64,000 bases of DNA from contig JAUCBJ010002048.1 in assembly GCA_032718475.1 (NCBI GenBank), positions 4,728 through 68,727 on the forward strand, read 5' to 3'. Position numbers and translations under genes: made by a program. The stretch comes from Nemertoderma westbladi (taxonomy: Eukaryota > Animalia > Xenacoelomorpha). This document shows, piece by piece, positions 1,980 to 37,579 of the stretch. Below the pieces are notes generated by a model. That model ran no database searches. It was not told the DNA's origin and saw only the letters and a program-made list of their open reading frames with translations. The first letter of the stretch is position 1; each line of letters starts with the position of its first letter.

Positions 1980-3366
1980 GGATAGGCGAACATTTCTTGC
2001 AGTGAAAGTATTTCCATACCTGTTATAGTTTTTGAGATAGTCAGACATGAGTAGCTAAAATTTGATTTTTTTTTGGTGAAGTCTTATTTCACCGGTACCT
2101 ATCATCCGAAATATGGATTGTGATATATCGTTAGATGCGGGTCCACTATCTGTACATTCACATTTTTTCAAGAATAAAATTCGATCAAGAGTTTTCGAAA
2201 TATTTTCGAATTACCGGAAGCAGACTTTGGACGACTATATCTCCGGTACCGGTAGGCCTATTGAGTCGAAATTTTTTTTAATCTACTTGAACACTCCAGT
2301 GAATATTTTTTAGTTTGAAAGTTTTGCCCCAAAATGCTCAGAAGTAATTTGGAAAAAACTGATCATTTCGCGATCATGATCTTTTGACCCCCTAGAATTT
2401 AACTTTTTTATGGTCAAATTTTGGCTACCCCCCCTAATTCGAGGGTGTGGAATCTTTTTGTAATGTTAAGGTTTTTCATACGGTGAACTCACATGACTTA
2501 TGGTCTTCGAAATAAAACCGAAAACATGATCATTCCTGATCATGGCCTGATCAAATCACTTTTTGAAAATTTCGAAATGCTCAAAAGTTGCCCCTTCTTA
2601 ATAGAAGTCGATTAGTAAAAAAAAAATCGGGGGTCTCAAACAAAGTTTTCGAGAAAATCGGGAAAAACCAAAAAACATGATCTTTTATGATCAGGAAGCT
2701 GATCTCGAGAACCGGTTACCGATCGAGCCACTTTTTTTTAATCAACTCCGAATAGACCATTGAACATTTCTTACAATGAATGTTTATTAAAAAAATGCTT
2801 AGAGTCGATTTTAAATATACTGATCTTTTCGCGATCATGATCTTGAGTTTTGACCCACTGGACTTGAAACTTTTTTTATGCCCAAATTTTGGCTACCTCC
2901 CATAATTCGAGGGTGAGGAATCTTTTTGTGGTGTAAGTATAAGTTTTTCCATACAGTGAACTCCCAGGACTTGATCTTTGAAAAAAAACCGAAAACACGA
3001 TCTTTTCTGATCGCGGCCTGATCAAATCGCTTTTTGTAAATTTCGAAATGCTCAAAAGTGGCCCCTTCACCATAGAAGTCGATTCGTAAAAAAAAAATCG
3101 GGGGTCTCAAACAAAGTTTTCGAGAAAATTCTAAAAAACTGAAAAACACGATCTTTAATGATCAGGTATCAGATCTCGAGAACCGGTTGTTCGATTGAGC
3201 CAATTTTTATTTAATCGACTCAGGGCAGTGTTCTGAACGTTTCCTACAGTAATTGTTTATATCCAAAATGCTTAGTTACGATTTTACGAAGTCCGATCTT
3301 TGCGCGATCATGATCTTGCATTTTGATCAGGAAGAATTCACTTTTTTTAAATCTTTTAACGGGAAT
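1980..3366. mobile_element. Non-coding repeat (probable non-autonomous DNA transposon) with ~470-bp internal tandem units; left part, interrupted by the LTR element
   Basis: GATC.TT.CGCGATCATGATCTT recurs at ~2362, ~2822 and ~3296 with long colinear similarity. The same unit resumes after the LTR element at 21660 (GAATCTTTTTGTAATGTTAAG). Termini were not identified. Confidence 0.55.
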
Positions 3367-5521
3367 TGTTACGGTATATGGCGCTGTATCCACATATATT
3401 AGTCCGTTATACTGTACGCAATATTAGTCCGTTATACTGTATGTAATATTAGTCCGTTGTGCAGCATAATATTTTAGATAAGGCATAATAGCGCAGTGAT
3501 ATTTAGATAGGGAAACCAAAACGCCCATATATTTTGAATCCATCCATTTTGTATAATATGTAGCCCTACCTACGTAATTTTGTATTAGGATATATGTAGA
3601 TAGTTCCAGGGTAGCAAGTTTAGTCGGACCCTGGATTTCGTGCTTGCTGATATTAGCTTCAATAGGGCTAGCATATAGGGACGCTGTCCTGGCCATTCAG
3701 CAGCCAGGGACATGATCCATTACGATATATGGTAATAATTTGAGGTTTGGGCGGCAATAGGGCTACAATCCGGCCTCCTTATTGGACTAACTGCTTCCAG
3801 GTTGGTCTAATGCTAGCGCGGACTGGAGAGCCAATAGGAGAGCGATTGAGTCACCCTATTGCATCACCCCATCCGGATCACCTATAAATTGGCGGCTTGC
3901 CGGTAGAGCTGTACAACAACCCTATACCTTACAATCCACACCCTTATATTTTAGCGTATTTCTGCAATTTGCTAAATTTTGATTAATTTCTTAAGATGAT
4001 TTGCTAGTGCGATTATTCTTGATTGTGTTTCTCAATTAATCCCATCGATTACTGCTAATTACAACTGGAACTATGATTTCTACCTTTTGTTAATGGTTCT
4101 ATGTGATTCCTTTCTACGCAATAATCCTAAGGGATTTCTGAGACTGTCAGACTTTGTGATTTGCATGCGCCGCTACGGTAGCTATTAGCATAATGGAGGG
4201 CTAAGGTGCCAGTGGGCGGTGGGCACATCGGGGGGTTGAGCGACTAAGGGAGAGCGGAGGATTCAAAGGCGGGCAACGCTGGCGGGGGGTCACCGTTGCG
4301 GTCGGGCAGTTCACGCTGTGGTATGCAGACCATTCGCCGGTACGGTAATTAAGGGGCTGATGATCCAGGTTTCGTCTCTATTTAGTATTAGGGGGGCAGG
4401 AATCAGGTTAGTTAGGAGTCCTATATGTACCCGGGAGAGGCCTGCACGTATCACAACGTGGAGTGTGAAGTACGAATAGTGAGTCGCACAACTGTGGGCT
4501 ATACAGTAGTTAACTGCATAATTGCGAACTGTGATTGCTGACGCTGATTGGTGTGTTATTGAAGTGTGCCTACGATTGTGAATGTTTAGGTAGGTGCCCC
4601 CTTTCTTTGATTGATTTCTATTTCTTAGTTACAACAATTAGTTACTGATTAGGTCAAAGTAATACGGCAATTTAGGCTATTACTAGCGAAACCTGTTGCG
4701 TAATAAATTAGAATTACGCATTCTGGAACTCTTAGTAATTAGTACGCTGTTACATATTTGTGACTGTAATTGATTAGTAAAAAATTAAGAATTAGTATGC
4801 AGCATAGCGGAGAGTAGCTAAGGTAATAATTAGAGTACTGTAAACTATTCACGCTGAGCGGTTATTTGCATTGGCGGGCAATCAGCTAGATCGCACTATT
4901 CGGTACACACAACACGCTAGTAATTTGCTGGCCTAAAGCCAGCTGCAGGCAAGTTTAGACCCAGAGCGGAACTATCCACGTAGAGAAAAATACTGTACCA
5001 TTTTGATTATTTTAAATATTCTCGCATTCACACATTACGATAGGGAACCCCCAGTATTCGCGATTAGAAAAGGCGTAGGCAATAGCGTGCTTTAATAGTG
5101 ATAGAATTAGGCGTAAGAATACTCTGAGTGCAAAGCCTCTCGCACTCGTCTTAAGTAAGCTTAGGGAGCTGACTCGGGTTTATTGTTTTGGTTATTCCCG
5201 CGTGGCTCATAGATTCGAACAGTTAGCTCTCTATCGAGCAATCGGTAGAGAAAGGAACAAGCAATTTTGCAGGAGCTGTGTAAATTTAGTAAATTATATT
5301 AGCGGACGGCAGATAAGCGCCATCTAACGGTAAGTAGCGGTTTGTATTTAGCAACCCTTACAATTTAGCAATATCACGCTCCTGATCCCCTTTACTTAAC
5401 AGTAGAGCAGTCTTTGTGTCTTATTGGTTAGGCGAGAACTTATTAGGTTGGCAGAGGAGTATACGGGTATTTGTCTGTTCAACAGTTCTGCTGTTAGTAT
5501 AGAGGTCGCGGTTGTTTATCA
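3367..5521 (+). repeat. 5' LTR (2155 bp)
   Basis: Starts TG, ends CA; direct repeat of 19549-21654. Contains CCAAT/ATTGG boxes, TGAGTCA, TATAAA (3883-3888) and AATAAA (4702-4707). Confidence 0.95.
3780..3915 (+). promoter_or_regulatory. Candidate LTR U3 promoter (CCAAT boxes, AP-1-like site, TATA)
   Basis: ATTGG ~3781, CCAAT ~3831, TGAGTCA ~3847, TATAAA 3883-3888. Motif-based only. Confidence 0.45.
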
Positions 5522-5533
5522 GTGATACGTGCA
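5522..5533 (+). promoter_or_regulatory. Atypical primer-binding site, complementary to the element's own LTR (4443-4454)
   Basis: GTGATACGTGCA directly abuts the LTR-terminal CA and lacks the TGG of a tRNA PBS. Its exact reverse complement TGCACGTATCAC lies at 4443-4454 and 20612-20623. Confidence 0.6.
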
Positions 5534-6711
5534 TTGGCTGTAGGCAGTAGCGTACAGTAAATAGAGTATTCTTAGGCTGATTAGTAGTATCACAGTATTA
5601 AGTAATAAATTGGAGCACGTGATCGTCTGCTGTAGGCTATAGGCTAGCGTACAGTAAGACATTGAGTATATTCTTTTAGGCTGTTAGTTTAGATTACTGT
5701 ATTCACTGGCTGCGTACAATAGTACAGTAGTACATTAGGCTGATTGCTGTTACTGCGTACGGTAGAAGGACATTTGTTTGCCGTACCACACACAGTATCA
5801 ATTAGGCTGTTAGGTTGGTGTACTGTTTTACTTACTGTACTGCATACAGTGGATGTACGGTAGTGCGTTTTGCTAATTGCGAATACAGCAGTTCCTTAGG
5901 CCTTAGGGCAAACAGTAATTAGTAAGTTTTTTGAAAATTTTAGCTAGGTTTGCGAGAATTCAGTTTCGGTCAAAATTATTTGTAAAATTCTAGAGTTTTG
6001 TACCGGTATGTTAGGTAACCGCTTAGTTATTTTATACCATCTGGAGATACATGGCAAGACGGAACTTCTGAGTTTGGGGTTCGTGTGGGTCTGCGGGTTC
6101 GGTTTGCAATCAGCGAAGGGCCTGAATCTTTGGACGCGGACGTGGAATCTCACAGCAAACAAGGTTAGTTGTTCTGTTGGCACCATTGTGTTTGTGGAAG
6201 CAGTAAAAATTACCGGTTGTTTAACTGCGAAGCTGAACTCAATTTATTAGTTAGGATATTTAGGTTTAGCCGGCCATGGTTTTTTTGAATCGCTCAAGTT
6301 AGAGAGAGAGTTAGAGAGAGTCGCAACCCGAAGATGTAGCCACGCGCTAGTGGATACATATAATATTTGAAACTAAAATTACGTTGATTAGAGCTATATA
6401 TATATAAAATTAGAAATATTCGGGCGGCAAGTATATTTTGAATATTTTGTATTAGATTCAGAGTTATTTTGTGCTATACCGGTATTTAATGCTATATAAT
6501 AGCTATATAATAATATTTTTGTTTAAATATTGTGCTAGTATTTGCTATAACTATATACCCCATTAAATTCACAATATTGCATTGCGAATTTATTTGACAT
6601 TTGGACCAACTGATTATTTGACAAATAATTTGACCGTATTTCGGTTAAATTATAATCATATCTCGAACCTTTGCGAGATATTTTTGCCGGAAGGCAAACA
6701 TTATTTAGACT

Positions 6712-9700
6712 ATGAGTGTCTCAGACAAGGAGGCACTAGAGGACAGCTATGAGATGGCGGCTGGACCGCCGACTGACGATAGCGTCAATATTACTGTTGA
6801 CGACAATGCCGACTATGACGACGCAGCGAGCGACGCTGACGTAAGTGAACAGGAGGACGAGACAGTGACTAGTGAGGAAGAACAACAACCTCAAGTAATA
6901 GTATTAGGATCCCCTACCGCTACTGTAAGGAAGGACTGTACAGCAGCCCGGACAGAGGTGAGTGATAGGGAGGGTAGTGTAGCAGAAGCGAGAGCCCGGA
7001 GCCCGGTTTCCAGACCTGTGGGTATGGTAAGTGCCGTGGTCCCGACGGCTGTAAGGAGTACCCGTAGTTCCCGAAATAATCCTTCAAGTCCACCGAGTGT
7101 AAGTCAGGTAAGTGATAGAGAGTTCGACACTGCGATAAAGAAGAAACTTCGCGCGCACGCCGGACATATAACTTGGACGGCGGACAAGGTAAGGAAGATG
7201 TTAGCTGACTCAGCGAACATCGGGAGGGTAGAGTTAGCAGAGATTAGAAGAGGATATAACTCAGCGTTATTCAAGCAGACGGAGGAGCTTGCAGTCCTAG
7301 CGAAGAAGGCAGTAGAGTCTCAGTCGAGCGACGTGGCGACGAGGATTTACGATAGGGTTTTGGCAGCCCTGTTGGAGCACCGCGAGTTATCGGAGCGATT
7401 CCGACGAGTTAGGACGGAGAACTGGCTGCTATGGGCATCCCAAGCGCAGGCGACTCAAGTGAGTGACGCAGAGTTAAGAGACTTAGTGGAGCGAGAAGAG
7501 ATCCAGGATAAAGAAGAGCGCCGTTATCAGAGGGAAGTTACTAGCTGGCTGATGCAGAATGGAGTGGTGGTACCGGGTCAGGTACTACCGACGACGGAGA
7601 ACATCCAACAGAGGACGTTGACTCCACCCGACGACGCATCCAGAGACAGTGGCGATTCCCAGGTTAGTCACGCGCGAGGTAAGGTTATATGTGCTAGATC
7701 CCTTGTTTCGCACAACTCGGCGGAGGAGAGAAGACGCCGACTGGACGAACAGCAGGCGGAAGTTTTGCGTGCATCGGAAGCGCGGAAGGAAGCCGAGCGG
7801 GAACGGGAGCGAACACGTAAGTTAGACGCGAAGTTGCGCGAATTGGAAGATAAAGGTAAGAGTGAGCGAGCGGAACGCGTGCAGAAGGAACGTGAACTTC
7901 AACTTGAACGCGAACGCAAGGAACGTGAACTCGAACTTGAACGCGAATGCAAGGAACGCGAACTCGAACTTGAACGCGAGCAGAAAGAACGCGAACTCCA
8001 GCTCGAACGCGAACGCAAGGAACGCGAACTCCAGCTCGAACGCGAACAGAAGAAATGCGAACTCGAACTTGAACGCGAACGCAAGGAACGCGAACTCGAG
8101 ATCGAGAAGGAGCGACGGGCGTTGTATGAAGAGAAGGCGCGTGTGGAAGAAGAGGGCGCAGCGAGACGAGCGAGGGAAGAAGAAGAACGTAAACTGGCGC
8201 AGTTGGAAAGTGCGAGATTAAGTTTAGAGAGCGAAGAACGGACTAGGAAGGCGAACGAAATCGCCGAGAAGGGGATGCGAATGATCGAAGAATGTGGGGC
8301 GAGTGTAGGGACAGAGTTGCGAGAACTGTTCGCACTGCAGAAGGCCGAACAGGAAGCGAGAACTCCGGCTATACGCGAGTCGACGACGACCAGAATTCCT
8401 ATACCCGGTCCAGCTATTACGAGTACACGGATCGCTAAACCGTTCTCTACATATCGCACGCCAGTTGGTATTAGTGCTTCACCTATCGCCCAGGATCCAC
8501 GTCATCGGAACACCGCACCACTATACACCGAACGAGAGAATGAAGAATTTAGAGAAGAAACTCCGACGGGACGAGTATTTGGCGAACCGAACCCGCGGGT
8601 TTGGAATACGCGGACGGAGCGCCGACCCAGTTCGACGGAGAACTTCCGGGTTAAACCGGAAGAGGGATCATATGAGAGACAGCGGATTACTCAGATAGAG
8701 CCGACTATACAACAGAACCCTAGCCAGGAATTTATTACGAGGGATGAGTTAAGTGCTAGTTTAGCGCAAGCTATATCGCCGCACATCCAACCTATAACGG
8801 ACATGCTTAGCAACCTACGGTTAAAGGAAGCAGCCCAGGTAAGAAGTAATTCTAATCCTAGCAGGCCTGAGTTAGACAAAGTCCAGCCTAGTCAACGAGT
8901 ACGCATATCGGAGGAGACTATACCACATAGACCTCAGGTAAGGACGCCTGTCCCGAATATTCATAATCCCAATTTCGAAAATTCGGCCGAGAAATTTATA
9001 CAAGATGCTTGGGTCAGGGCCTCGGCGCGCAAACCATCGCGAGCGCTAAGGACTGACACAGAGTCAAGCGATGAAGAGGAAGAAATGAGACGTCAGAAGT
9101 CCCGAAACTATAAGGAAAGAAGGACCGACGCGGAGCAGGTAAGTTGGAACCACCGGGAAAGGACCAGACTTAACAACCCTGCGGAACTAAACCATTTGTT
9201 AACCCGCAACGACGCAACCCTTAGGGACATAGGTAAGTTTGCTGCTAGGCAAGGACTGCCGACGCAACAACCCCAGAAGTTTATGGGTAACCATAAGCAT
9301 TGGAGGACCTTCAAAACCTATGTCGACGAGCAGCTAACCAACAGCACCTTTACTCCCAACGAGAAGTTCAACTATTTGCTTCAGATGCTCCATCGAGAAC
9401 CTAGAGCCATTGCTGATAACTTCGTCGGCAATGAAAGAGCATTCGAGTTAGCGATGAAGACGCTTAGTGACATCTACGGGAATAAAACCAAGATGGCGCA
9501 GTCGATAGTAGAAGACTTGGGTAAGGGCGGAAGGATTACAACTCCGTTAGAGCTGTTGAACTTAGCGAACGCTATTTCGAACGCATTGGACATCTTGAGG
9601 ACGGTGAATCTACCTCATCATGGTGATCACGCCGAAGTTTTAAAGAGCGTAATAAGACGTCTAAACATGCGTTATCGACAGAAATGGCGCAAATTAGAAA

Positions 9701-10374
9701 ATAAGTTGGAGGGTCAAGGTAAGGTGTTGACACTTCAGCATATTCATGACATGATAGCCACAGACGCAGTAGCAGAGATGAAATCAAACTTCTCAGAGGA
9801 GAATATGAGGGAGTCTAAGCCTGTTACCGGTAAGTCTATGGTAAGTTTTGACGATGACAGGACCACTGTGACATTTAACTCAGTAGACAGATATAATTCG
9901 AGTACCCTAGCCTTTAGATCAGACTCGCGAGTATGGTCAGGTGAGCGGTTAGATAGACCTAGGTTAAAGCAACAGGAGTTGCCGGATGGATTTGTAGGTT
10001 GCCAATACTGTTTACTAAAGGAGGTAAGATCTGACGATCATAAGTTAGATAGTTGCAGACGGTTCAAAGAATTAAATTCGGAACAGAGAAGAGTTCAAGT
10101 GCGGACGTTGGACACCTGTTGGGCATGTCTTGCGCCAGGCCATGTACGGCGGCAGTGCCCGAACAGCAAGGACGGATGCATGGAATGCGGCAGACTACAT
10201 CACAAGTTGCTACATGCGGATTTCCACACCCCAATGGACCGTTACTTACAGCGAAATCCTCACAGGAAGGGGAGCAAAGAACCCATATCGATAAGGAGGA
10301 ATACGTATACCGGCATTCAGGATGATGGTTACCAACCAGGTTCATCGGATGAGGATGGCGAGTCGAGCGCGTGA
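6712..10374 (+). CDS. BEL/Pao Gag (coiled-coil region, DUF1759-like capsid region, Cys/His motifs)
   Basis: 1220-aa ORF. PQKFMGNHKHWRTF...EKFNYLLQML (DUF1759-like). C-terminal CQYC...H.LDSC, CWACLAPGHVRRQC and CMECGRLHHKLLH are typical of BEL/Pao Gag. Confidence 0.9.
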   Translation: MSVSDKEALEDSYEMAAGPPTDDSVNITVDDNADYDDAASDADVSEQEDETVTSEEEQQPQVIVLGSPTATVRKDCTAARTEVSDREGSVAEARARSPVSRPVGMVSAVVPTAVRSTRSSRNNPSSPPSVSQVSDREFDTAIKKKLRAHAGHITWTADKVRKMLADSANIGRVELAEIRRGYNSALFKQTEELAVLAKKAVESQSSDVATRIYDRVLAALLEHRELSERFRRVRTENWLLWASQAQATQVSDAELRDLVEREEIQDKEERRYQREVTSWLMQNGVVVPGQVLPTTENIQQRTLTPPDDASRDSGDSQVSHARGKVICARSLVSHNSAEERRRRLDEQQAEVLRASEARKEAERERERTRKLDAKLRELEDKGKSERAERVQKERELQLERERKERELELERECKERELELEREQKERELQLERERKERELQLEREQKKCELELERERKERELEIEKERRALYEEKARVEEEGAARRAREEEERKLAQLESARLSLESEERTRKANEIAEKGMRMIEECGASVGTELRELFALQKAEQEARTPAIRESTTTRIPIPGPAITSTRIAKPFSTYRTPVGISASPIAQDPRHRNTAPLYTERENEEFREETPTGRVFGEPNPRVWNTRTERRPSSTENFRVKPEEGSYERQRITQIEPTIQQNPSQEFITRDELSASLAQAISPHIQPITDMLSNLRLKEAAQVRSNSNPSRPELDKVQPSQRVRISEETIPHRPQVRTPVPNIHNPNFENSAEKFIQDAWVRASARKPSRALRTDTESSDEEEEMRRQKSRNYKERRTDAEQVSWNHRERTRLNNPAELNHLLTRNDATLRDIGKFAARQGLPTQQPQKFMGNHKHWRTFKTYVDEQLTNSTFTPNEKFNYLLQMLHREPRAIADNFVGNERAFELAMKTLSDIYGNKTKMAQSIVEDLGKGGRITTPLELLNLANAISNALDILRTVNLPHHGDHAEVLKSVIRRLNMRYRQKWRKLENKLEGQGKVLTLQHIHDMIATDAVAEMKSNFSEENMRESKPVTGKSMVSFDDDRTTVTFNSVDRYNSSTLAFRSDSRVWSGERLDRPRLKQQELPDGFVGCQYCLLKEVRSDDHKLDSCRRFKELNSEQRRVQVRTLDTCWACLAPGHVRRQCPNSKDGCMECGRLHHKLLHADFHTPMDRYLQRNPHRKGSKEPISIRRNTYTGIQDDGYQPGSSDEDGESSA
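7885..8105 (+). repeat. In-frame 33-bp minisatellite in gag (ERELELERERK x ~6.5)
   Basis: AAGGAACGCGAACTCGAACTTGAACGCGAACGC units are visible and translate to an 11-aa E/R/K/L repeat. Confidence 0.85.
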
Positions 10375-10410
10375 GAAGTGACCTGCCAAGGTTTCACCGC
10401 GGATAGTTAA

Positions 10411-12966
10411 CCGACCAGCGCGCGGACGTATTTATCATCGGCCACGTCGGAAATATTTAGCGTGATTCCGGTGAAACTCACTGGCGATAAGGGATCGAAG
10501 AGAATATATGTGATGTTGGACACTGCGTCCACATTATCCTATATCGACGAGGAAGTGGCGAGAGCCGTTTCTAGCTTCCAGGACGCCGAGGAGATCCAAA
10601 TAGAGTTGAAGTCTATGCACGGGGTAGGAGACCTCAAGGGACACAGAATTTCGGTAGAACTAGATTCCCTACTTCCGAGAGACCAACATACTCGACAAGA
10701 ACGGAAAGCTTTGCCATTGGACGGATTTAAGTGTCTAGCTATGAAGGGATTCGGCAGGCAGTTAGGTAAGGTGCCGCCGATGAGTCCCATAGCACAGGAG
10801 TATTTTGACAAGCTCAGGATACCCAGACACCAGGTAGGTTATAGGAATGTTTCTATGTTGATTGGTGCAGAGCAGCTGATCGCACACCAGATATGGGAAA
10901 CGAGACCAGCTGAGCCGCATGTCAATGGACCACATGCCCATAGGACTATATTAGGTTGGTATACACGAGTACCCATGTCTTATGAGTTTACAGGTGGCGA
11001 CAAGCCAATGAACAGATACGATGAATTACGGCCTATAACTCAACCACCGTTAGTAGAACCACCAGACATAGACGAGTTTAGGAGAACCTGTATTGACCAC
11101 TATAGTGACTTTAGCGAGTCGGACGAGGAGTTGATTCCCGATAATGTTAGGTTGTCGGAACCACTTCATAACGACCGGACAGATAGTGAACCCGAGGACT
11201 ACTGTTATCAGACCCGTGGGTCTGGTTCAGCGGCCCACGCTACCTATTTGACTAACGTTTTGACTTATACTGACATAGTGGAGGGTCAGGTGGCTAAATA
11301 TCGAGACCTAGACATTTTCCAATACAGTGAGGAGGAGCTACAGAAGGAATTGATACGCCAGGACCTCGAGACAGGAGCCAGAACCGTCGAATGGCTGGAT
11401 AGGGACGCAATGGAACCCGGTGGATATGACCTAGCCATGTCTACTAATGAGAAACGGTCGCTGGAGATGATGGAAGACACCATACGTCTACTACCGACTG
11501 GACATTTTGAAGTTGGAATGTTGTGGCGTCGACAACCACCTAAGTTGGAGAACAACTATAACTTAGCCTTGAAAAGATTAAACGGAGTAAGGGCTCGGTT
11601 GTTAAGGAATCCGAACATTAGGGAGAAGTATTGCGCCCAGATCAACAACTATTTCGCTAAGGGATTTGCTGGGAAGGTAGAGGTCCCTGACTTAGTGACA
11701 GACCAGACTTATTACCTTCCACACCAATATGTGACTCACCCTGACAAGCCAGACAAAGTCCGAGTAGTCAACGACTGCGCAGCAGTCTATAGAGGTATGT
11801 CCCTGAATTCAGAGTTGATGGACGGACCCAACCTGAATAATTATTTGATTGGAATACTGTTGCGTTTTAGACAGCGGCGATTCGCATTTACTTGTGACAT
11901 CGAGGCGATGTTCCACCAGGTAAGAGCCTGTAAGGCAGACCAGGATAGCCTTCGCTTTCTCTGGTACGAGAATGAAGACCTATCCGGCCCAGTGGTTAAA
12001 TACCAGATGTACGTTAGGATATTTGGCGCCCGCGATAGTCCAAACGGCACGCTGTTTGTTCTAAAGAAAACGGCAACAGCCCAGATTGGTAAGTATCCAG
12101 TAGAGGTAATCGAGTCCATCTTGAGAAACTTCTATATGGACGACGGATTGGTGTCCAAGGACACAGAGGAACAAGCCATAGAAGTGGCTCACGGCCTGCA
12201 AGAGTGCTTGGCTACAGGGGGTTTTCCTCTGACCAAGTTCACTACAAACTCGGAGGCCCTATTAGAGTCGTTCCCGGTAAAAGATCGCGGGAGCGGAGAC
12301 ATTGAATTGGGGGTAGAACCAATCCCCATGGCGCGAGTACTGGGACTCGCTTGGAATCCGAACTCAGATAAGTTCCAGGTAAGAGTTAGATTTGAGCCCA
12401 GTAGCCCAGACAAAGTTTTGACAAAGAGGATTTGCTTATCGACATTAAGTAGACTATTTGACCCGATGAACTTTATCAGTCCGGTTATATTACAGGCACG
12501 AGCGTGCATGAGGAAAATTTGGTTGTCCGACGTAGAGTGGGACGAACCAATATCTCCTATACATGCAAAGCAGTGGAGGGAGTGGGAAGCTGAGTTGCAT
12601 CTATTGAAAAATATAGACGTACCCCGTTCCTACTTTCCGAATCAGCTGGTATTCCCAGCTGATCTCGAACTCCATCTGTTTAGTGACGCAAGTGACACCG
12701 GCTTTGGTATGGTAGCCTACCTTCGCCGAGAGGTAAGTCAGGACAAGTTTGAGACGGCTTTTGTGACTTCTAGATCAAAGACAATGCCGGTCAAATACAT
12801 GACTGTCCCTCGTGCAGAGTTACAGGCAGCTGTAGTTTCAGTCGAGGTAAGTAAGCAAATAACAGAGGAGTTAGACACGACATTGACCTTATTCTATTGG
12901 ACGGACGCATCCTTGGTGTTAGTATACATTGCGGCCGACAATATCCAATATCGAAACTTCCATTAG
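10411..12966 (+). CDS. Pol part 1: aspartic protease, reverse transcriptase, N-half of RNase H
   Basis: MLDTAS protease motif. RT motifs YYLPHQ.V, KVRVVNDCAA, DIEAMFHQV, FGARDSP and FYMDDG. RNase H motifs LHLFSDAS, TVPRAELQAA and FYWTDA. Open from 10411 in the gag frame; no ATG start. Confidence 0.9.
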   Translation, partial: PTSARTYLSSATSEIFSVIPVKLTGDKGSKRIYVMLDTASTLSYIDEEVARAVSSFQDAEEIQIELKSMHGVGDLKGHRISVELDSLLPRDQHTRQERKALPLDGFKCLAMKGFGRQLGKVPPMSPIAQEYFDKLRIPRHQVGYRNVSMLIGAEQLIAHQIWETRPAEPHVNGPHAHRTILGWYTRVPMSYEFTGGDKPMNRYDELRPITQPPLVEPPDIDEFRRTCIDHYSDFSESDEELIPDNVRLSEPLHNDRTDSEPEDYCYQTRGSGSAAHATYLTNVLTYTDIVEGQVAKYRDLDIFQYSEEELQKELIRQDLETGARTVEWLDRDAMEPGGYDLAMSTNEKRSLEMMEDTIRLLPTGHFEVGMLWRRQPPKLENNYNLALKRLNGVRARLLRNPNIREKYCAQINNYFAKGFAGKVEVPDLVTDQTYYLPHQYVTHPDKPDKVRVVNDCAAVYRGMSLNSELMDGPNLNNYLIGILLRFRQRRFAFTCDIEAMFHQVRACKADQDSLRFLWYENEDLSGPVVKYQMYVRIFGARDSPNGTLFVLKKTATAQIGKYPVEVIESILRNFYMDDGLVSKDTEEQAIEVAHGLQECLATGGFPLTKFTTNSEALLESFPVKDRGSGDIELGVEPIPMARVLGLAWNPNSDKFQVRVRFEPSSPDKVLTKRICLSTLSRLFDPMNFISPVILQARACMRKIWLSDVEWDEPISPIHAKQWREWEAELHLLKNIDVPRSYFPNQLVFPADLELHLFSDASDTGFGMVAYLRREVSQDKFETAFVTSRSKTMPVKYMTVPRAELQAAVVSVEVSKQITEELDTTLTLFYWTDASLVLVYIAADNIQYRNFH

Positions 12967-14594
12967 TTAGCGGACAACCGTCGCTGGCATTAGAGTCATG
13001 CAGTATTTATGACAAATTACTAAATTCGTCTGCCTCTTGGCTGACAATTTGTAAAAGAACTGCGTGGTTAAGCCGATACGTTTCGTACCTTTGTATAAAA
13101 CATTTGAAACATTTGAGAGAACCATCGAGCGCTAATAGTGAGCGAATTCAGAAATTGAAACAACCTCTGACAGAGGATGAGATTGATCAAGCGGAATTAA
13201 AGCATTTGAAACATTATCAAATGTGTGCCTTCCCAAAAGAATTCCATCTATTATCGGCTCAACGACCAGTTCTCTATAAACCCCTTAGAAAATGGAGTCC
13301 ATTAATCCATAAGGGTTTAATTTGTCATAGATCGAGAATCCAGACTGTCGACATAAACTCACAGTTTCGGTTCCCAGTGATAATCCCTAGTCACCCAATA
13401 GAATTGCAAAGAGCGATTCTATGGGATATACACAAGAGGTTGCATCACGCGGGAAGGTTACACTGTTTGTCGGCAGCGAGACAGCGATTCATTCTATTGC
13501 AGCCAAGCAGGGCAGTAGGCACTATGTACGACGCCTGTCTGGTTTGCAAGAGAGTGAACGCCAGAGTATTGGAACAGGAGATGGCTGAACTCCCGGAAGC
13601 GAGAGTGCAGGCATATGACCCACCCTTTACGAACACAGGGGTGGATTGTTTTGGTCCGATTGAAGCAAAGAGTGGACGGCTGACCCACAAGCGATGGGGT
13701 CTGCTACTGACATGCATGGCTAGTAGAGCCATACACATTGAGCGTGTGGCAGACATGTCGACCAAATCTCTGCTCCTGGCCTTGAAGAGATTTATGGCCA
13801 GGAGAGGACTAGTAAAGGCGTTCTACTCCGATAAGGGTACAAACTTTGTCAGAGGGAATAGCGAGTTGAACGCGGCTCATAAAGCGGCACAGAATAAGGA
13901 AATTTCTGCAGCACTTTTGCCGCAAAGAGTAGAGTGGAGATTTAATACTCCAGAAAGTCCTTGGAGAGGAGGAAGTTGGGAGCGTTTAGTTCGCTCTGTA
14001 AAGCAGGCCATTGCCAAAACATTGCCTGTAAACAAACAACTTACCGACGACGAACTGGTCACAGCTTTCATTGAAATCGAGCATACCCTAAACTCGAGGC
14101 CGATAGCTATGTTGCCAGACGGTGTTGCATTAACGCCGAATCATTTGCTAATGCAGAGTCCAGCATTTCTTGTGCCGGCATCAGAACCCATTAGTGCCGA
14201 CCTATATAGTCGTAAAGGCTGGAAAGTAACACAATTTGTCGCGTACACATTCTGGGAATATTGGCGGGAATACTATCTTCCCACCATATCTACCAGAACA
14301 AAGTGGTACAAAACGGTTCGGAGTCTCCAAAGGGGAGATTACGTACTGATAACCGAGCCGATTGTCAAGAGAAAGTACTGGGAGACGGGAGTGATCTTGC
14401 ACACACACCCAGACGTGCAAAACATAGTGCGCACAGTCACTGTGAAAATTATGTGCAAGTGTCCGCACCCAAAAAAGTGTAAAACTAATGGTTTACACAC
14501 CTTGGACCGACCGGTCCAAGATATCGTGTTATTAGAGGAGACACGTATCGAGACGGGAGATTATAATTTGTCTCCTGCCTCAAAACAGAATTAG
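12960..14594 (+). CDS. Pol part 2: integrase (frame-shifted from part 1 by an internal deletion)
   Basis: H-x3-HHAG...CLVC zinc finger. PFTNTGVDCFGP, SDKGTNF and GGSWERLV form the DDE core. LTPNHLL and a C-terminal RPVQDIVLL follow. Confidence 0.9.
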   Translation, partial: PLVSGQPSLALESCSIYDKLLNSSASWLTICKRTAWLSRYVSYLCIKHLKHLREPSSANSERIQKLKQPLTEDEIDQAELKHLKHYQMCAFPKEFHLLSAQRPVLYKPLRKWSPLIHKGLICHRSRIQTVDINSQFRFPVIIPSHPIELQRAILWDIHKRLHHAGRLHCLSAARQRFILLQPSRAVGTMYDACLVCKRVNARVLEQEMAELPEARVQAYDPPFTNTGVDCFGPIEAKSGRLTHKRWGLLLTCMASRAIHIERVADMSTKSLLLALKRFMARRGLVKAFYSDKGTNFVRGNSELNAAHKAAQNKEISAALLPQRVEWRFNTPESPWRGGSWERLVRSVKQAIAKTLPVNKQLTDDELVTAFIEIEHTLNSRPIAMLPDGVALTPNHLLMQSPAFLVPASEPISADLYSRKGWKVTQFVAYTFWEYWREYYLPTISTRTKWYKTVRSLQRGDYVLITEPIVKRKYWETGVILHTHPDVQNIVRTVTVKIMCKCPHPKKCKTNGLHTLDRPVQDIVLLEETRIETGDYNLSPASKQN

Positions 14595-15365
14595 TGTTGG
14601 ACGCAACTCACTTCGTATGCATTCCTCGTATGCAAATACAAGGAAATGCATAGGAGCGGGGTTGTGGTGACTTGCGTTGAGTTTTGTCTGGTGGGTATCA
14701 AAACGAAATTTTATTTTCAAAAATTTTGGAAAATTTAAAATTTTAAAAATTAGAAGTGAACCCAAGACAATTCCAGACGCTGTGTATAGACGCGTTTTAG
14801 AATTCGTCTATAGATATACAGTAATTTGAAAAGTCGTGAAGCCTGGAAAATAGCATTTAGAAACCATGGTGACGGCTATATTACGTAGGAGTGTAAATTG
14901 AGTTTAGCAACTTCCACAGATTGGTGCCAACAGTGCAACTAAGGTGCTAAAGGTTAGTAGCACCAGGGGCGTACATGGACCCCACTCAGTAGTTTGCAGG
15001 ATGTGTGATGTTCGATTATCAAACCTGTGGGTTTGGTATAGTCGGGTATTGTGGCTATGGTCCTTTCTAACTACTGTAGTTTAGTACGAGTGATGGGAGT
15101 AGTTTGGGCATCAAAAAGTGAGTTGGTCACGGCCAGTTTATCTCCAAAGTTTTGCGCTATGCATGGGAATAGGTTAGAGGATAGTTAGTTAGGAAGAGAC
15201 GGGATCTAGAGAGTCGAACCTGAACTGCTGGAAGGCGGGGGGGGGGGGGGGGGGGGGGTTCGGGAGGTCTGTCTTTCGGCGACATCTAACTGATTTACCC
15301 ACAGTGTAATTGGTTACGTAACGGCACTTATTGGGATATATATATATGTATATACGCGAGGCATA

Positions 15366-18300
15366 ATGGAGAAGGATATTAGAGCGCAACCGCGCAGAGG
15401 ATTTACTGCCAGAGAGGAGGCGGAGCTACCATTCGCGCGACCAGGATGTAAAGACTCTAACGTTTACTACCATGGGCGGTCCGTGATGGAGCTAAACGGA
15501 AAATATAAACCGACTTATGATAAGGAATTACGGAGGGAAAGAATGAGAGCGTTGGGGGACCGGATGGAAGTTTTGCGGAGAGAGTATCGCACGCGGTATC
15601 CCTACGACTTCGCTTTGGACGTATGTGACATTAGTGCAGACCCGGATGAGGAGATCGCACGACTGTACCATATGAATATGTATTTACGACACGAAGAACC
15701 TCTACCTGCAATCCGAGATCAGTTCGACGGAATGCATCTATACCGGAGGACTCGAGGCGAGGATCAGGAGACGCCGAAAGTCTTCAGCGTGTACAAGCTG
15801 TTCTACAAGTGTGGTGAATGCATGAATAAGCAAGACGTGGCGATTCCCGATCGACTAGACGAGCAACATCCGGAACCGATATTAACGCGATGTCCAGCTC
15901 ACCAGTTCCTTAGATACAACGAGGGAGGTTACCCGATGAGCAACCCGATGATCAGTATCGACTTCAGCGGAAAGCGACCTCCGAGACCCATTACGCCGAC
16001 CGTTACGACATTAGATCCGTATACGGAGATTAAACCCTGTTCGACACCCAGTTTGATAGAGACGGCAGCGGCCATTTCGCTGTACCGAGCCTACAAGGAT
16101 CTAGAGGCGCGGCGCGAAGCGGCGCGGGACTCGGGTACCAAACCCGCGGGTTTGGAGCTCTCGAGTCCCTGGACTGCGTTTACTTCACCTCACCGAGCGA
16201 GAAGCCTCACGCCTGAGCATCAGGACGACATAGACGCGTTGCGGCAGGAGGAGCGAGCGGCGAAGGCGAAAGAGTTATTTGAGAATCGGATAGCGGAGTA
16301 TAATAAGACCGCGGATAGACATCAAGAGGAGACGAGGAGAGTGACCGGATTTGTTCCACAGGTCGTATCTCAACCCCGACCGGTGTATTATTCCGACGGC
16401 ACCGAACCTGCGATATTAGTAGATCATCCGGAGTCGCGAGAAGCGATACGATTCTTGCCGATGGTAAGAATGGCGGATCATTGGAACGTTGACTGTCTAC
16501 GGGAAGTTTTATGCGCGAAGTTCTTGCGTGATGTCCCAATGCAGATCACAGATTACGACACATTGGATAAGATTGGAGCTCCGGGGAAGGAGAGTAAATT
16601 ATTTGGATGGTTGGATAAGTACATCAAGGTATGGGTCGCGGTGGCTACATTCCCAGACGACGAGGAGGTAGACCAGACGTGGCTGAGGAGGAAGGGTTCT
16701 TATACCCGATATGATGACCACAAGGCTATCGAGCGCATGTGGACCCCATCAGACGAGATTCAGCGTCAGTGGAGGAAAACGGAGGAATCACTGCAGGATT
16801 GGAGGGTGATGTTCTACGACAATGAAGGAGGGTCCCATCAAGAATGTTTGACTAGCAAGTGTATTCAAATTCGTGCAGCCGATGGTGTGACTCATGTGTT
16901 TATGCGTGTGAGGGCGGATCGAGAGAGACCGGAGCCCATCATAACGACACAATATCGGAAGGGGAAGGATCCTAGGGAGCAGATTTTGGAGGTATGCAGG
17001 CGAGGAGGTATGCACGGAGCGGAGCGTATCGACGCCAGGATGCTACCCAAGAAAGTTAGAGAGGCTATTCTCAACCAAGATTACGTCAAGGTGGGATCGG
17101 GAGTCCAGAGCGATTTGGAGAGCGACTTCAACGCCATGACTGATCTGGAAGATAGATTGCCGAGACCGTTTGTCGACACCAAGCTATTGTTGCTATGGGC
17201 ACAGGATATTGGAATTTATAGGGAGTATCCCAACTCTGCCAAGACTGGTATGGGCTTTATAGCACACTTGTTGTATAATTGGGACTTTAAGTTAAAGACG
17301 CAGAAGAAGTACGAGGAGGCGTATGGCGAATACAACACGCCACCGGGAGCGGAGTTCAAATCCCACTTCAAGCGGCAAGCGTTAGTGTATTGGAACATTT
17401 GCGCGCCACCCCGTGCGTCGCTACAATATTATTTGGTGCTTGAGTCGAACACGGTGACTTGTTTATTAGCGGATATCGTTGCGCGAGTTTTGAAGCGTCA
17501 TCCATTGGTATTCGGAGGAGATCAATACGTTCGCTCGAAAGGGGGAATCCAATCCGACGTGATGAAGCGTTTCTTAACCCCGTTCTTCAACCAATCGTTA
17601 GAGAATACGTCGATGGTTAGGAGAGGATTAGCGATATTCCAAGGAGTATATCGACAGAACATCGGAGATTTGGGAGACCGACCGTCGATGGAGTATCCGA
17701 CGCCAGAAGCTTTGGAGAAGTGGTTCGGGAATCAAACCCGCGGGTTTCGTACTCCCTTCCACTCGGAGGCTGATAGACCTGTTAAGGAGGGCTGGCCGGA
17801 GACGTTAGTAGAGGTGTTCGGAGTAGATCTTCCGGTGGAGAAGACATATCCGAAACGAACGCGGGAGGAAATATTGGAGATAGAGGACAAGGGCGAGGAT
17901 GTTTACTTTGTTCCGGATCGACAACCGTTGACCGGAGAGGACGACATCGTATTAGACATTGGGAAGGAAGGAAGTGCGAAACCGATTGGAGACCTCATAT
18001 ACGAGAGGGCCTGGTTTCCACAAGCGCGTAGGTGCAAATTGTGCGGCAGCACAAGGCACAATCTAAAGTCGTGCGACGCGGTAGTAGAGGCGGCGCATAA
18101 GGTCTGTCGTTGGTGTAATGAGACCGACCATTCGTTTCACACGTGCACCGTCTTCATTTCTCAATGTGGATATTGTGGGGTAAAGGGACATCGTAGCGCG
18201 AGATGTCAGCTGCGAGATGATTCCTTTCAAAACCATAGCGCTAACCTACTTCGGGAGATGTTAGATAAGTGGGAGAGTGTGGCTGATTACCATATTCAAG

Positions 18301-19073
18301 CGCAGATGCGTTGGTTACCATTTAAGGCGGGATATGGATTTTGGGCGGTAGACCCATCGCATGTTGCGTACGAGCCATATCTACAATCGCTACCACAATA
18401 TCAGGAACTCATCCTAACTGCTCAAGACCTTCCACAGAACACTGGAGTTATCGTAGTCCGAGAATACTTCAGACAATTGAATATGGATAACAAGTACACC
18501 TGGAACTTCGTTGCTATTTGCGATCGCATCACGAAGGGTGTATTTACGGAGACTAGAAAAGTGGTACGCGCGCGAGGTGAATGGAGGATGGCGGCTATAC
18601 AATACCGCAACGAATTCTTGTTGACTCATGTGCCAGTGGGTTCATTGACCGCTGAGAGGATACAGGGACAGAGGATCGCAGCGACCACAGCGACGACCGC
18701 TGGAGCTCAAGGCTCGCGGAAAGAACCAGGAGGAGGGGTCCACGACAAGCGTCAAGTCAAGGACGACCACTATCACTCTATTATAGAAGCACAGAGGTTG
18801 CAGCGCAAGGCGCAGGGAGCGTCGGAAAAAGCGCGTGTGCAACTGCATAAGGAAGAGTTGGCGGAAGCGACCACGGGAGCACGACAATTGGGACGAGGCC
18901 GAGGAAGAAGCACGAGCCGGGAATCTGTCGGGGCTCAGGGAACATCGTCGCCGGTTCCGGGGAGTGATGCCTCACGGATGCCGTCAACGGAGTCGACTGG
19001 AGGACGACTGGTGTATCTGGGGAGGGGGCGAAAGAGAGGAGCGAGCCCAAAGAACCCAGGAGCGGGTCGATAA
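15366..19073 (+). CDS. ORF3: DEDDy (WRN/RNase D/EXD-like) 3'-5' exonuclease domain plus three CCHC zinc knuckles
   Basis: 1235-aa intact ORF. ExoI VMFYDNEG followed by CIQIRAADGVTHVF. ExoII LPKKVREAILNQDYVKVGSGVQSD and FVDTK. ExoIII YWN..PP..SLQYYLVLE. Knuckles CKLCGSTRHNLKSC, CRWCNETDHSFHTC and CGYCGVKGHRSARC (18033-18206). Domain call is by motif recognition. Confidence 0.75.
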   Translation: MEKDIRAQPRRGFTAREEAELPFARPGCKDSNVYYHGRSVMELNGKYKPTYDKELRRERMRALGDRMEVLRREYRTRYPYDFALDVCDISADPDEEIARLYHMNMYLRHEEPLPAIRDQFDGMHLYRRTRGEDQETPKVFSVYKLFYKCGECMNKQDVAIPDRLDEQHPEPILTRCPAHQFLRYNEGGYPMSNPMISIDFSGKRPPRPITPTVTTLDPYTEIKPCSTPSLIETAAAISLYRAYKDLEARREAARDSGTKPAGLELSSPWTAFTSPHRARSLTPEHQDDIDALRQEERAAKAKELFENRIAEYNKTADRHQEETRRVTGFVPQVVSQPRPVYYSDGTEPAILVDHPESREAIRFLPMVRMADHWNVDCLREVLCAKFLRDVPMQITDYDTLDKIGAPGKESKLFGWLDKYIKVWVAVATFPDDEEVDQTWLRRKGSYTRYDDHKAIERMWTPSDEIQRQWRKTEESLQDWRVMFYDNEGGSHQECLTSKCIQIRAADGVTHVFMRVRADRERPEPIITTQYRKGKDPREQILEVCRRGGMHGAERIDARMLPKKVREAILNQDYVKVGSGVQSDLESDFNAMTDLEDRLPRPFVDTKLLLLWAQDIGIYREYPNSAKTGMGFIAHLLYNWDFKLKTQKKYEEAYGEYNTPPGAEFKSHFKRQALVYWNICAPPRASLQYYLVLESNTVTCLLADIVARVLKRHPLVFGGDQYVRSKGGIQSDVMKRFLTPFFNQSLENTSMVRRGLAIFQGVYRQNIGDLGDRPSMEYPTPEALEKWFGNQTRGFRTPFHSEADRPVKEGWPETLVEVFGVDLPVEKTYPKRTREEILEIEDKGEDVYFVPDRQPLTGEDDIVLDIGKEGSAKPIGDLIYERAWFPQARRCKLCGSTRHNLKSCDAVVEAAHKVCRWCNETDHSFHTCTVFISQCGYCGVKGHRSARCQLRDDSFQNHSANLLREMLDKWESVADYHIQAQMRWLPFKAGYGFWAVDPSHVAYEPYLQSLPQYQELILTAQDLPQNTGVIVVREYFRQLNMDNKYTWNFVAICDRITKGVFTETRKVVRARGEWRMAAIQYRNEFLLTHVPVGSLTAERIQGQRIAATTATTAGAQGSRKEPGGGVHDKRQVKDDHYHSIIEAQRLQRKAQGASEKARVQLHKEELAEATTGARQLGRGRGRSTSRESVGAQGTSSPVPGSDASRMPSTESTGGRLVYLGRGRKRGASPKNPGAGR

Positions 19074-19548
19074 TACATCATAGCACAGGGCGACAGACTC
19101 TAGATATATACATCATCGTCGCTCTGATGTATATTGTAGCATTTAGAAATCTTCGACTAGACTCATATACACTAGTTGAGCTGTTTTGAATTTATATTAT
19201 GAGAGAGGCGAAGGAAGTGATTGGGGAGACAAACCTGCGGGTTTGGCTTACTCCTTTCACTTGCCCTAGCAAATTTTTTTATATATATTTGATTTTGTAT
19301 GTAGTAATCATTATGTAGTACGAACGAGAAACAATATTTGTAAATTTAATTTGAATGAGAGAGATAATATTTGTAAATTTAATTTGTATGCAATTCATTA
19401 TGCAATATCTATAGCAATATTTTGTAAATAGTAGGATTTATAGTATCAAGTATTTAGATTATTTGGAAGAAATTTATTTTGTTTGTATACATCACCTTAT
19501 ACTCTTCTACAGTTGGAGGGAAACATTATATGATTTCCCTTGGAGCGG

Positions 19549-21654
19549 TGTTACGGTATATGGCGCTGTATCCACATATATTAGTCCGTTATACTGTACG
19601 CAATATTAGTCCGTTATACTGTATGTAATATTAGTCCGTTGTGCAGCATAATATTTTAGATAAGGCATAATAGCGCAGTGATATTTAGATAGGGAAACCA
19701 AAACGCCCATATATTTTGAATCCATCCATTTTGTATAATATGTAGCCCTACCTACGTAATTTTGTATTAGGATATATGTAGATAGTTCCAGGGTAGCAAG
19801 TTTAGTCGGACCCTGGATTTCGTGCTTGCTGATATTAGCTTCAATAGGGCTAGCATATAGGGACGCTGTCCTGGCCATTCAGCAGCCAGGGACATGATCC
19901 ATTACCATATATGGTAATAATTTGAGGTTTGGGCGGCAATAGGGCTACAATCCGGCCCCCTTATTGGACTAACTGCTTCCAGGTTGGTCTAATGCTAGCG
20001 CGGACTGGAGAGCCAATAGGAGAGCGATTGAGTCACCCTATTGCATCACCCCATCCGGATCACCTATAAATTGGCGGCTTGCCGGTAGAGCTGTACAACA
20101 ACCCTATACCTTACAATCCACACCCTTATATTTTAGCGTATTTCTGCAATTTGCTAAATTTTGATTAATTTCTTAAGATGATTTGCTAGTGCGATTATTC
20201 TTGATTGTGTTTCTCAATTAATCCCATCGATTACTGCTAATTACAACTGGAACTATGATTTCTACCTTTTGTTAATGGTTCTATGTGATTCCTTTCTACG
20301 CAATAATCCTAAGGGATTTCTGAGACTGTCAGACTTTGTGATTTGCATGCGCCGCTACGGTAGCTATTAGCATAATGGAGGGCTAAGGTGCCAGTGGGCG
20401 GTGGTTGAGCGACTAAGGGAGAGCGGAGGATTCAAAGGCGGGCAACGCTGGCGGGGGGTCACCGTTGCGGTCGGGCAGTTCACGCTGTGGTATGCAGACC
20501 ATTCGCCGGTACGGTAATTAAGGGGCTGATGATCCAGGTTTCGTCTCTATTTAGTATTAGGGGGGCAGGAATCAGGTTAGTTAGGAGTCCTATATGTACC
20601 CGGGAGAGGCCTGCACGTATCACAACGTGGAGTGTGAAGTACGAATAGTGAGTCGCACAACTGTGGGCTATACAGTAGTTAACTGCATAATTGCGAACTG
20701 TGATTGCTGACGCTGATTGGTGTGTTATTGAAGTGTGCCTACGATTGTGAATGTTTAGGTAGGTGCCCCCTTTCTTTGATTGATTTCTATTTCTTAGTTA
20801 CAACAATTAGTTACTGATTAGGTCAAAGTAATACGGCAATTTAGGCTATTACTAGCGAAACCTGTTGCGTAATAAATTAGAATTACGCATTCTGGAACTC
20901 TTAGTAATTAGTACGCTGTTACATATTTGTGACTGTGATTGATTAGTAAAAAATTAAGAATTAGTACGCAGCATAGCGGAGAGTAGCTAAGGTAATAATT
21001 AGAGTACTGTAAACTATTCACGCTGAGCGGTTATTTGCATTGGCGGGCAATCAGCTAGATCGCACTATTCGGTACACACAACACGCTAGTAATTTGCTGG
21101 CCTAAAGCCAGCTGCAGGCAAGTTTAGACCCAGAGCGGAACTATCCACGTAGAGAAAAATACTGTACCATTTTGATTATTTTAAATATTCTCGCATTCAC
21201 ACATTACGATAGGGAACCCCCAGTATTCGCGATTAGAAAAGGCGTAGGCAATAGCGTGCTTTAATAGTGATAGAATTAGGCGTAAGAATACTCTGAGTGC
21301 AAAGCCTCTCGCACTCGTCTTAAGTAAGCTTAGGGAGCTGACTCGGGTTTATTGTTTTGGTTATTCCCGCGTGGCTCATAGATTCGAACAGTTAGCTCTC
21401 TATCGAGCAATCGGTAGAGAAAGGAACAAGCAATTTTGCAGGAGCTGTGTAAATTTAGTAAATTATATTAGCGGACGGCAGATAAGCGCCATCTAACGGT
21501 AAGTAGCGGTTTGTATTTAGCAACCCTTACAATTTAGCAATCGTCTTTGTGTCTTATTGGTTAGGCGAGAACTTATTAGGTTGGCAGAGGAGTATACGGG
21601 TATTTGTCTGTTCAACAGTTCTGCTGTTAGTATAGAGGTCGCGGTTGTTTATCA
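19549..21654 (+). repeat. 3' LTR (2106 bp)
   Basis: Copy of 3367-5521 with a 13-bp and a net 36-bp deletion plus ~4 substitutions seen by eye. Preceded by a short purine-rich TTGGAGCGG and a hairpin AGGGAAACAT...ATGATTTCCCT. Confidence 0.95.
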
Positions 21655-22060
21655 GGAATCATGGCTAATGTGGGGTCGCTGAATCTTTTTGTAATGTTAA
21701 GTTTTTCGATTGGGGCAAGCCTTGAGTGTCCGAATCCTGATCAAAACTGATCTTTGCTGATCATGGTCAAGATCATGATCTGATCGCTCCAAAAAAGTCT
21801 TTTTTAAGGTAAATCCATATGCTGCCTATCGATTGGCGCCGGTTCCAAGTCCGTAGCATTAGCGGTTCTAGAGATCGACGCATAGCAACGAGGTTGCTAG
21901 GGAAGCGGACTTTTTGACTCAAATTGGCCCTAGACGGAGAACCGTAGACATTTGAAACGTAATGTATATGGGAAAAAGTCTTCTGGATAAATTTTTTTTT
22001 TGGGGGGGGGGGGGGTCTAGGAACATCCTATTGTTGGTTTTCGCTTAGTTTCTGAGAAAA
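21655..22060. mobile_element. Continuation of the host repeat split by the LTR insertion
   Basis: GAATCTTTTTGTAATGTTAAG and GATCATGATC motifs match the 2200-3360 units. Confidence 0.5.
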
Positions 22061-33400: not shown

Positions 33401-34275
33401 ATAGAACGTTCACTGAATATAATGCTTGCTGAATTGAACGTTCACAGAATATAACGTTCACTGAATAGAACGATCATTGAATTGAACGTGCACTGAATAG
33501 AACGCGCACTGAATTGAACGTTCACAGAATATAACCCTCACTGAATAGAACGCTCACTGATTAGAACGCTCACTGAATAGAACACTCACTGAATAGAACG
33601 TTCACTGAATAGAATGCTTACCGAATAGAACACTCACTGAATAGAATGTTTAAATGAATAGAACGCTTACTGAATGTAACACTCACTGAATAGAACGTTC
33701 ACTGAATAGAATGCTTACTGAATAGAACACTCACTGAATACAACGCTCACTGAATAGAACACTCACTGAATAGAAAGTTCACTGAATAGAATGCTTACTG
33801 AATAGAACACTCACTGAATAGAACGTCCACTGAATAGAATGCTTACTGAATAGAACACTCACTGAATAGAACGTTCACTGAATATAACGTTTACTGAATA
33901 GAACACTCACTGAATAGAACGCTCACTGAATAGAACGTTTAAATGAATAGAACGCTTACTGAATGTAACACTCACTGAATAGAACACTAGCTGAATAGTA
34001 CACTCACTGAATAGAACGCTCACCTAATAGAAGGCTTATTGCATTTTAGAAGATAATCAGCTTTAAATAGAAATAAAACTACTGTATTATGACAGAACCT
34101 AACATGCAGGGGTTAATAACAACCACTCATAGGACCTAAAGACGCAACACCTAACGTCCAAAGGACCTTCTAACGCCTTACAACTACTTCATACCATAGG
34201 GCCACTGTGGCCCTATGGCACGATTAAACCATAGGGCCATACTTACATCCATAAGTGGCCCTAAGGTTGTGTGTT

Positions 34276-36115: not shown

Positions 36116-37579
<1,464 letters not shown>

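Follow-up and report, generated by a model that had tools for sequence, protein, structure and literature searches.

Candidate self-priming from the LTR in an 18.3-kb BEL/Pao retrotransposon and its distant relatives

The window, which is the whole stretch of 64,000 nucleotides analysed, contains one BEL/Pao LTR retrotransposon of 18.3 kb (3367-21654). The bases GTGATACGTGCA at 5522-5533, beginning with the first base after its 5' LTR, are the exact reverse complement of 4443-4454 inside that LTR. This feature is real and non-random, and is part of a clade-wide signature. The best overall explanation, held with fairly high confidence, is that the element primes minus-strand DNA with a 12-mer of RNA derived from its own LTR and not with a tRNA. 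Self-priming as such is likely, and a primer cut from the 5' LTR copy is the mildly favoured form of it.

Element architecture and pairing at the primer-binding site

The element comprises the following features, all on the forward strand.

3362..3366 (+) and 21655-21659 (+): target-site duplication GGAAT, 5 bp, left and right copies
3367..5521 (+): 5' LTR, TG...CA, 2155 bp, from repeat comparison
3883..3888 (+): TATAAA, from a motif search, putatively the likelier promoter
4422..4429 (+): weak TATA-like TATATGTA
4443..4454 (+): predicted self-primer, a contiguous 12-mer without intron, ending 3' in AC
4702..4707 (+): the LTR's single AATAAA, 248 nt beyond the 3' end of the primer
5522..5533 (+): primer-binding site, abutting the LTR (offset 0), starting with GT, no TGG
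6709..10374 (+): gag-like ORF, 1221 aa, DUF1759 (Pfam)
10411..12966 (+): pol part one, with protease, RT, and Pao Peptidase_A17 region
12855..14594 (+): pol part two, with integrase zinc domain and DUF5641
15294..19073 (+): extra ORF, 1259 aa, with a weakly supported DEDDy/EXD2-like 3'-5' exonuclease-like domain and CCHC knuckles
19540..19548 (+): short polypurine-tract-like site abutting the 3' LTR, no spacer
19549..21654 (+): 3' LTR, TG...CA, holding a second 12-mer at 20612-20623

The Pfam order PF03564, PF05380, PF17921, PF18701 is that of a Pao-type gag and pol. With this gag and pol (PR-RT-RH-IN), LTRs, and a target-site duplication, the element belongs to BEL/Pao (Belpaoviridae). BEL/Pao Pfam domains are present in all but one of 66 homologues, and the nearest named proteins come from marine invertebrates, at 37-40%. 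These relatives point to an animal host. Stops set pol part one apart from gag, and a frame change precedes pol part two. The LTRs are nearly identical, differing at 5 of 2106 aligned bases and by two indels (13 and 36 nt), which indicates that the insertion is young. Several imperfect short repeats were seen by eye in the leader (5534-5900).

C4454 pairs with G5522, the first base past the LTR, and all 12 of the 12 pairs are Watson-Crick, with a mismatch at the next pair on both sides. The first-pass annotation had claimed this exact register and a perfect match to both LTR copies, and both claims are reproduced. A search of the window with at most one mismatch finds the 12-mer exactly three times, at 4443-4454 (+), 20612-20623 (+), and 5522-5533 (-), and three matches occur in 0 of 100 shuffles. 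Order-2 Markov LTRs contain a 12-nt match by chance in 1 of 20,000 cases at offset 0 and in 5 of 20,000 at offsets 0-5. Under a looser search allowing splice junctions, the window's match is reached by 2 of 2000 shuffles. A splice junction within the window's own 12-mer was rejected, since the match is contiguous and without AG.

TGG is absent at offsets 0-5 after the LTR, in agreement with the earlier annotation, and the first TGG lies 13 nt past the LTR, at 5535. The element also lacks the 18-nt site complementary to tRNA(Arg) or tRNA(Gly) of the ICTV profile. An LTR-complementary site that adjoins the LTR end, together with the lack of a tRNA site, is the arrangement of Tf1-like self-priming. 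A tRNA primer site is a trait described for the family, and the RT-based classification rests on other grounds. Rfam gives 0 matches to tRNA-like or other RNA families in 3300-6750 down to E 5, and ARAGORN finds no tRNA genes in the window or in 80 relative loci. An element-encoded tRNA-like primer was rejected on these two results.

Priming might instead depend on a host tRNA fragment, a small RNA, or the TGG 13 nt downstream, the LTR match being due to chance or to a captured copy of the primer site. Belpaoviridae have, in the ICTV description, an 18-nt site at which host tRNA(Arg) or tRNA(Gly) serves as primer (PMC8742986), half-tRNA priming exists in Copia lineages (excerpts of PMC6317226), and rare matches are expected in a very large scan; all three would suit such a primer. 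The empty Rfam search of 3300-6750 speaks against it. A single element at such a probability could be a scan artefact, and relatives were therefore needed.

Covariation and introns in distant relatives

The relatives are metagenome contigs scanned with an RT alignment, and the best 80 of 425 confirmed loci were kept. These have 35-42% identity to the window RT and form 60 families at 80% nucleotide identity. Viral contigs were also scanned and contain no related loci. Since no relative among the best 80 of 425 loci exceeds about 42% in RT, no base-by-base compensatory change is seen within the window's own family. A direct repeat is present in 35 of the 80 loci. The main test set comprises 14 loci, each a separate family at 80% RT identity, in which the 3' LTR runs into flanking DNA, so that divergence, independently of the hypothesis, defines where the LTR ends. 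Three LTR ends were adjusted by eye, L065 and L079 by 2 nt and L033 by 10 nt, the last to the limit of ungapped identity after its sequence had been seen. Five of 19 relatives examined for this set (L036, L041, L044, L075, and L076) were left out of the main count, as their repeat stops at a contig end or its end is not that of the LTR. The search accepted a contiguous match or a match across a GT..AG intron at offsets 0-5, with the donor required only to be GTA or GTG.

Matches of 10-15 nt to the element's own LTR, with differing sequences, are present in 12 of the 14 relatives, or in 13 of 15 elements including that of the window. This covariation check had been proposed in the first-pass annotation, and the complements are family-specific. 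TGG at offsets 0-5 occurs in none of the 15 elements. Cross pairs, in which the site of one element is compared with the LTR of another, match over at least 10 nt in 6 of 210 cases; these pairs share rows, and the Fisher value for own versus cross pairs thus overstates the significance. For each of the 13 matching elements, no more than 11 of 2000 shuffles do as well, and a control site 30 nt further downstream has no match above 9 nt. Two relatives fall short: L020, whose ends are degenerate, reaches 6 nt, and L079 reaches 7 nt. L079 is one base off four sister copies, whose site fits the junction.

These results make a host tRNA fragment, small RNA, or downstream TGG a very improbable primer, since the sites vary from family to family and each is complementary only to the LTR of its own element, in many cases over a canonical intron, which is unexpected from chance or from a fixed tRNA pool. 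The sites of L027, L059, L076, and L004 open with a near-palindrome that presumably resembles the tRNA T-loop motif and would favour a tRNA-derived primer. The remainder of each of these sites matches the first exon of the element itself.

A blind scan of 22 further loci is weaker evidence, and it also returned unrelated matches of 10-14 nt. In five additional families (L017, L024, L030, L032, and L007/L003), the pattern immediately follows a CA or TA end; it is ambiguous in L051 and absent from L047. L076 has the pattern by eye. Several relatives have LTRs that end in TA and not CA (L053:7531, L033:91, L003:183, and L065:161).

The geometry of the site is also shared. The primer site begins with GT in 19 of 20 rows (the register of L053 was chosen by eye), so the primer would end in AC, and the helix begins 0-5 nt past the LTR end in every matching element. 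By eye, the window element and L056 have no spacer at either the primer site or the polypurine tract, and nine of the ten others with a similar tract have a 2-5 nt spacer at both ends, L032 being ambiguous. In the RT tree (FastTree, 104 sequences, midpoint root, no named reference elements), the window RT is a long branch that nests in the clade holding these elements, with support 0.996.

Nine of the 13 matches span a predicted intron of 67-186 nt, and the four contiguous matches are those of the window, L062, L065, and L080. A GTAAG donor is present in 8 of the 9 spliced matches, compared with 2 of 42 spliced cross matches and 22 of 315 candidate donors. L007 contains an intron in the middle of the predicted primer, whereas its sister L003 has the exons precisely joined and an identical primer site. 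The two LTRs of L062 differ, one having an acceptor and the other the joined exons, which may reflect an assembly chimera. The contiguous 12-mer, along with the presence and absence of the intron in L007/L003 and L062, suggests as the simplest reading that the window element probably belongs to a clade-wide system as a form without the intron, derived from a copy that lost it.

Self-priming in BEL/Pao, as the first-pass annotation had put it forward, is thus supported by covariation, and the proposal needs amendment in that the trait is clade-wide and the primer is split by a predicted intron in most relatives. A wider scenario is put forward with slight preference. In an aquatic-animal BEL/Pao clade, tRNA priming would have been replaced by an internal self-primer, normally spliced from an LTR intron, with splicing gating reverse transcription. 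Repeated precise intron loss would give ready-made primers, and the 18-kb element would be a derived form.

Covariation indicates selection for pairing and not the chemistry that the pairing serves. The helix could be real and selected but regulatory, as a long-range structure or a mask of the site (translation versus packaging, or a splicing sensor), with priming by something else, and a pairing that depends on splicing would be a good switch. This reading is improbable, given that the helix always lies 0-5 nt past the LTR end and nearly always starts with GT, at the place that fixes the cDNA end. None of the 15 elements has an alternative primer site, and in most elements with a similar polypurine tract the spacer at the primer site, judged by eye, tracks that at the tract.

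Proposed route of priming

Self-priming from the 5' LTR copy would begin with transcription from a start predicted, as likely, near 3914, after the TATAAA at 3883. CCAAT boxes are located at 3781 (minus strand) and 3831. The first-pass annotation had recorded a TATA-like motif upstream of the 12-mer in addition to this TATAAA; both are present, and TATATGTA occurs at 3591 as well as 4422. The usual TATA spacing of 28-32 nt from 4422 would put the start inside the 12-mer. The upstream TATAAA with its CCAAT boxes is the likelier promoter, which upholds the earlier remark that the 12-mer need not be the RNA 5' end. The primer would then be internal to the RNA, probably in contrast to that of Tf1, which consists of the first 11 bases. 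Tf2 has alternative starts that include or omit the self-primer (excerpts of PMC5341516), and by the same token both starts in the window, from 3883 and from 4422, could be in use. The distance from the best TATA box to the primer is 560 nt in the window, 122-167 nt in three relatives, and 31 nt in L046, where the primer would lie at the RNA 5' end.

Some 530 nt into the RNA, the 12-mer would anneal to the primer site, probably with the help of Gag. The RNA would be cut directly 3' of C4454, probably, if Tf1 is a guide, by RT/RNase H; the RNase H of Tf1 cleaves between bases 11 and 12 (excerpts of PMC7175516 and PMC4600332). RT would extend the cut 3' end from the last base of the LTR through U5 and R, a copy of about 1070 nt. 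Strand transfer would use the stretch between 4455 and the poly(A) site that follows 4702. Most relatives would form the primer by splicing out the LTR intron. A poly(A) hexamer is present in 11 of 14 LTRs, at 7-248 nt 3' of the primer end (a range that includes the window's) and never 5' of it, which would leave a repeat (R segment) for strand transfer after the cut. The predicted R-U5 is about 1070 nt in the window compared with 70-244 nt in 13 relatives.

Retroviral plus-strand synthesis copies the end of the tRNA. Plus-strand synthesis that copies the self-primer would likewise write LTR changes into the primer site, and this would explain perfect matches with different letters. The title of one reference reportedly states that the Tf1 self-primer is not removed.

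Downstream of the primer, strong donor-like sites are present at 4479, 4590, 5113, 5155, and 5330, and pyrimidine-rich acceptors were seen by eye near 4629, 5402, and 5485. The 36-nt indel between the LTRs covers one acceptor. Use of the donor-like sites in the replicating RNA would mean their loss.

The minimum-energy fold predicted for the naked unspliced RNA lacks the 12-bp helix (pair probability 0.005 or less), and forcing it in such a fold costs 6.0-14.6 kcal/mol. The three-duplex 'pretzel' of Tf1 (excerpts of PMC10085805) has no consistent counterpart here: in a crude test for Tf1-like flanking duplexes in 13 elements, none of the 13 comparisons at the U5 end and 4 of the 13 in the leader fall within about 7% of shuffles. 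The 20 nt that follow the primer site are able to pair within U5, and 1 of 40 shuffles is as good. Run X1 (contigs, presumed RNA, share 0.17) contains copies of the element, extra ORF included, that are mostly 90-99% alike along its length. The coverage of these contigs excludes 4443-4454 and 5522-5533, and they have no joints in the LTR. By hand count, 16 of 17 X1 differences in 12357-12864 of pol fall at third codon positions, which suggests that the family is under purifying selection.

A variant of self-priming would draw the primer from the 12-mer of the 3' LTR (20612-20623) or from another RNA molecule, its 3' end being made by exonucleolytic trimming to the duplex, possibly by the exonuclease-like ORF of the element. 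In favour of this variant, the poly(A) signal is only 7-248 nt past the primer end, and trimming to the duplex edge would yield the exact register. Priming in trans by a spliced RNA would also explain the retention of the intron in most relatives. The extra ORF resembles DEDDy/EXD2 exonucleases, as trimming would call for. Pfam gives no exonuclease match for this ORF, and a word-based search finds 0 homologues. HMMER finds 5 weak unnamed homologues with a common layout, acidic motifs (aligned by eye), and CCHC knuckles, of which the window ORF has three. Their profile matches EXD2 at E 2.6e-4, and the third match in an atlas search is DNA_pol_A_exo1, a 3'-5' exonuclease cluster, with score 0.91. 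Structure predictions of the ORF have pLDDT 33 and 39, which is too low for use. DEDDy third ORFs are known in rotifer LTR elements (excerpts of PMC5408684).

The distance from RT to the 3' LTR, however, is 1.9-2.2 kb in all 19 tabulated relatives compared with 6.6 kb in the window. Relatives with the same signature have no room for the ORF, and the exonuclease is thus not core to priming; the speculation of the first-pass annotation that it trims the primer is not required. Trimming in the relatives would need a host enzyme, and in L046 the TATA box precedes the primer by 31 nt, a spacing that puts the primer at the 5' end of the RNA. A trimmed or trans-acting primer is accordingly rated as unlikely, and cleavage from the 5' LTR copy is the preferred route.

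Known systems and other features of the window

The element resembles Belpaoviridae as described by ICTV in its gag DUF1759, pol Peptidase_A17 and DUF5641, PR-RT-RH-IN order, LTRs, and extra third ORF. It differs in its LTR of 2.2 kb and total length of 18.3 kb (ICTV gives LTRs of 0.2-1.2 kb and 4.2-10 kb overall), in the lack of a tRNA-type site, and in a third ORF that is exonuclease-like and not env-like. The sizes of the element and its LTRs are about twice the upper ICTV values.

Like Tf1, Tf2, and Tj1 of the Tf1/sushi group (Ty3/gypsy chromoviruses), the element lacks a tRNA site and has a site of 11-12 nt that is complementary to the LTR and abuts it. It is not a Tf1/sushi member, since its pol is of the BEL/Pao type and not that of a Ty3/gypsy chromovirus. 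A predicted intron splits the primer in most of its relatives, in contrast to Tf1. Self-priming is described for Tf1/sushi, Tcn1, and Copia TAR (excerpts of PMC6317226, PMC4600332, PMC3601003, and PMC6934838). In the TAR lineage (Houba as well as Osr-1, in Ty1/copia) and the Tcn1 clade, it was predicted from LTR complementarity, as it is here, and it arose more than once (TAR, Tcn1). TAR elements are plant elements, these lineages belong to other superfamilies, and the excerpts of that source (PMC6317226) mention no splice-assembled primer. The bdelloid Juno and Vesta also have a third ORF with a DEDDy-type exonuclease, but in the excerpts of PMC5408684 they are not placed in BEL/Pao, and neither a PBS nor self-priming is mentioned.

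Judged from sequence comparison, self-priming in BEL/Pao is likely and would be a variant of this known mechanism. The main text of the BEL/Pao survey PMC3118150 mentions no primer, PBS, or tRNA, that of the Sinbad paper PMC554778 mentions no PBS or tRNA, and PMC8220671 mentions the PBS in general terms only. The literature covered contains no report of BEL self-priming; Repbase Reports and most subscription journals lie outside it, and prior notice is possible.

If true, BEL/Pao would be the third LTR superfamily with self-priming, against the tRNA-primed description of Belpaoviridae by ICTV. Two features undescribed for Tf1 would be added, namely an RNA-internal position of the primer and, for most relatives, its formation through splicing. 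Self-priming may also explain BEL/Pao elements without a recognisable primer site, which annotation tools based on tRNA matches could drop. The predictions are exact to the base, with RNA ends at 4454 (3') and 4455 (5') and a strong-stop DNA of about 1070 nt.

Elsewhere in the window, a 471-bp tandem repeat (2382-3349) adjoins the insertion site. Long simple arrays occupy 22888-25111 (6-bp x371), 28269-34036 (16-bp x360), and 36116-37579 (3-bp x488). RVT_1 fragments at 43710-44990 (-) and 53075-53872 (-) are probably LINE remnants. An uninterrupted N-myristoyltransferase ORF of 563 codons at 62148-63839 (-) is an intronless host gene or a retrocopy.
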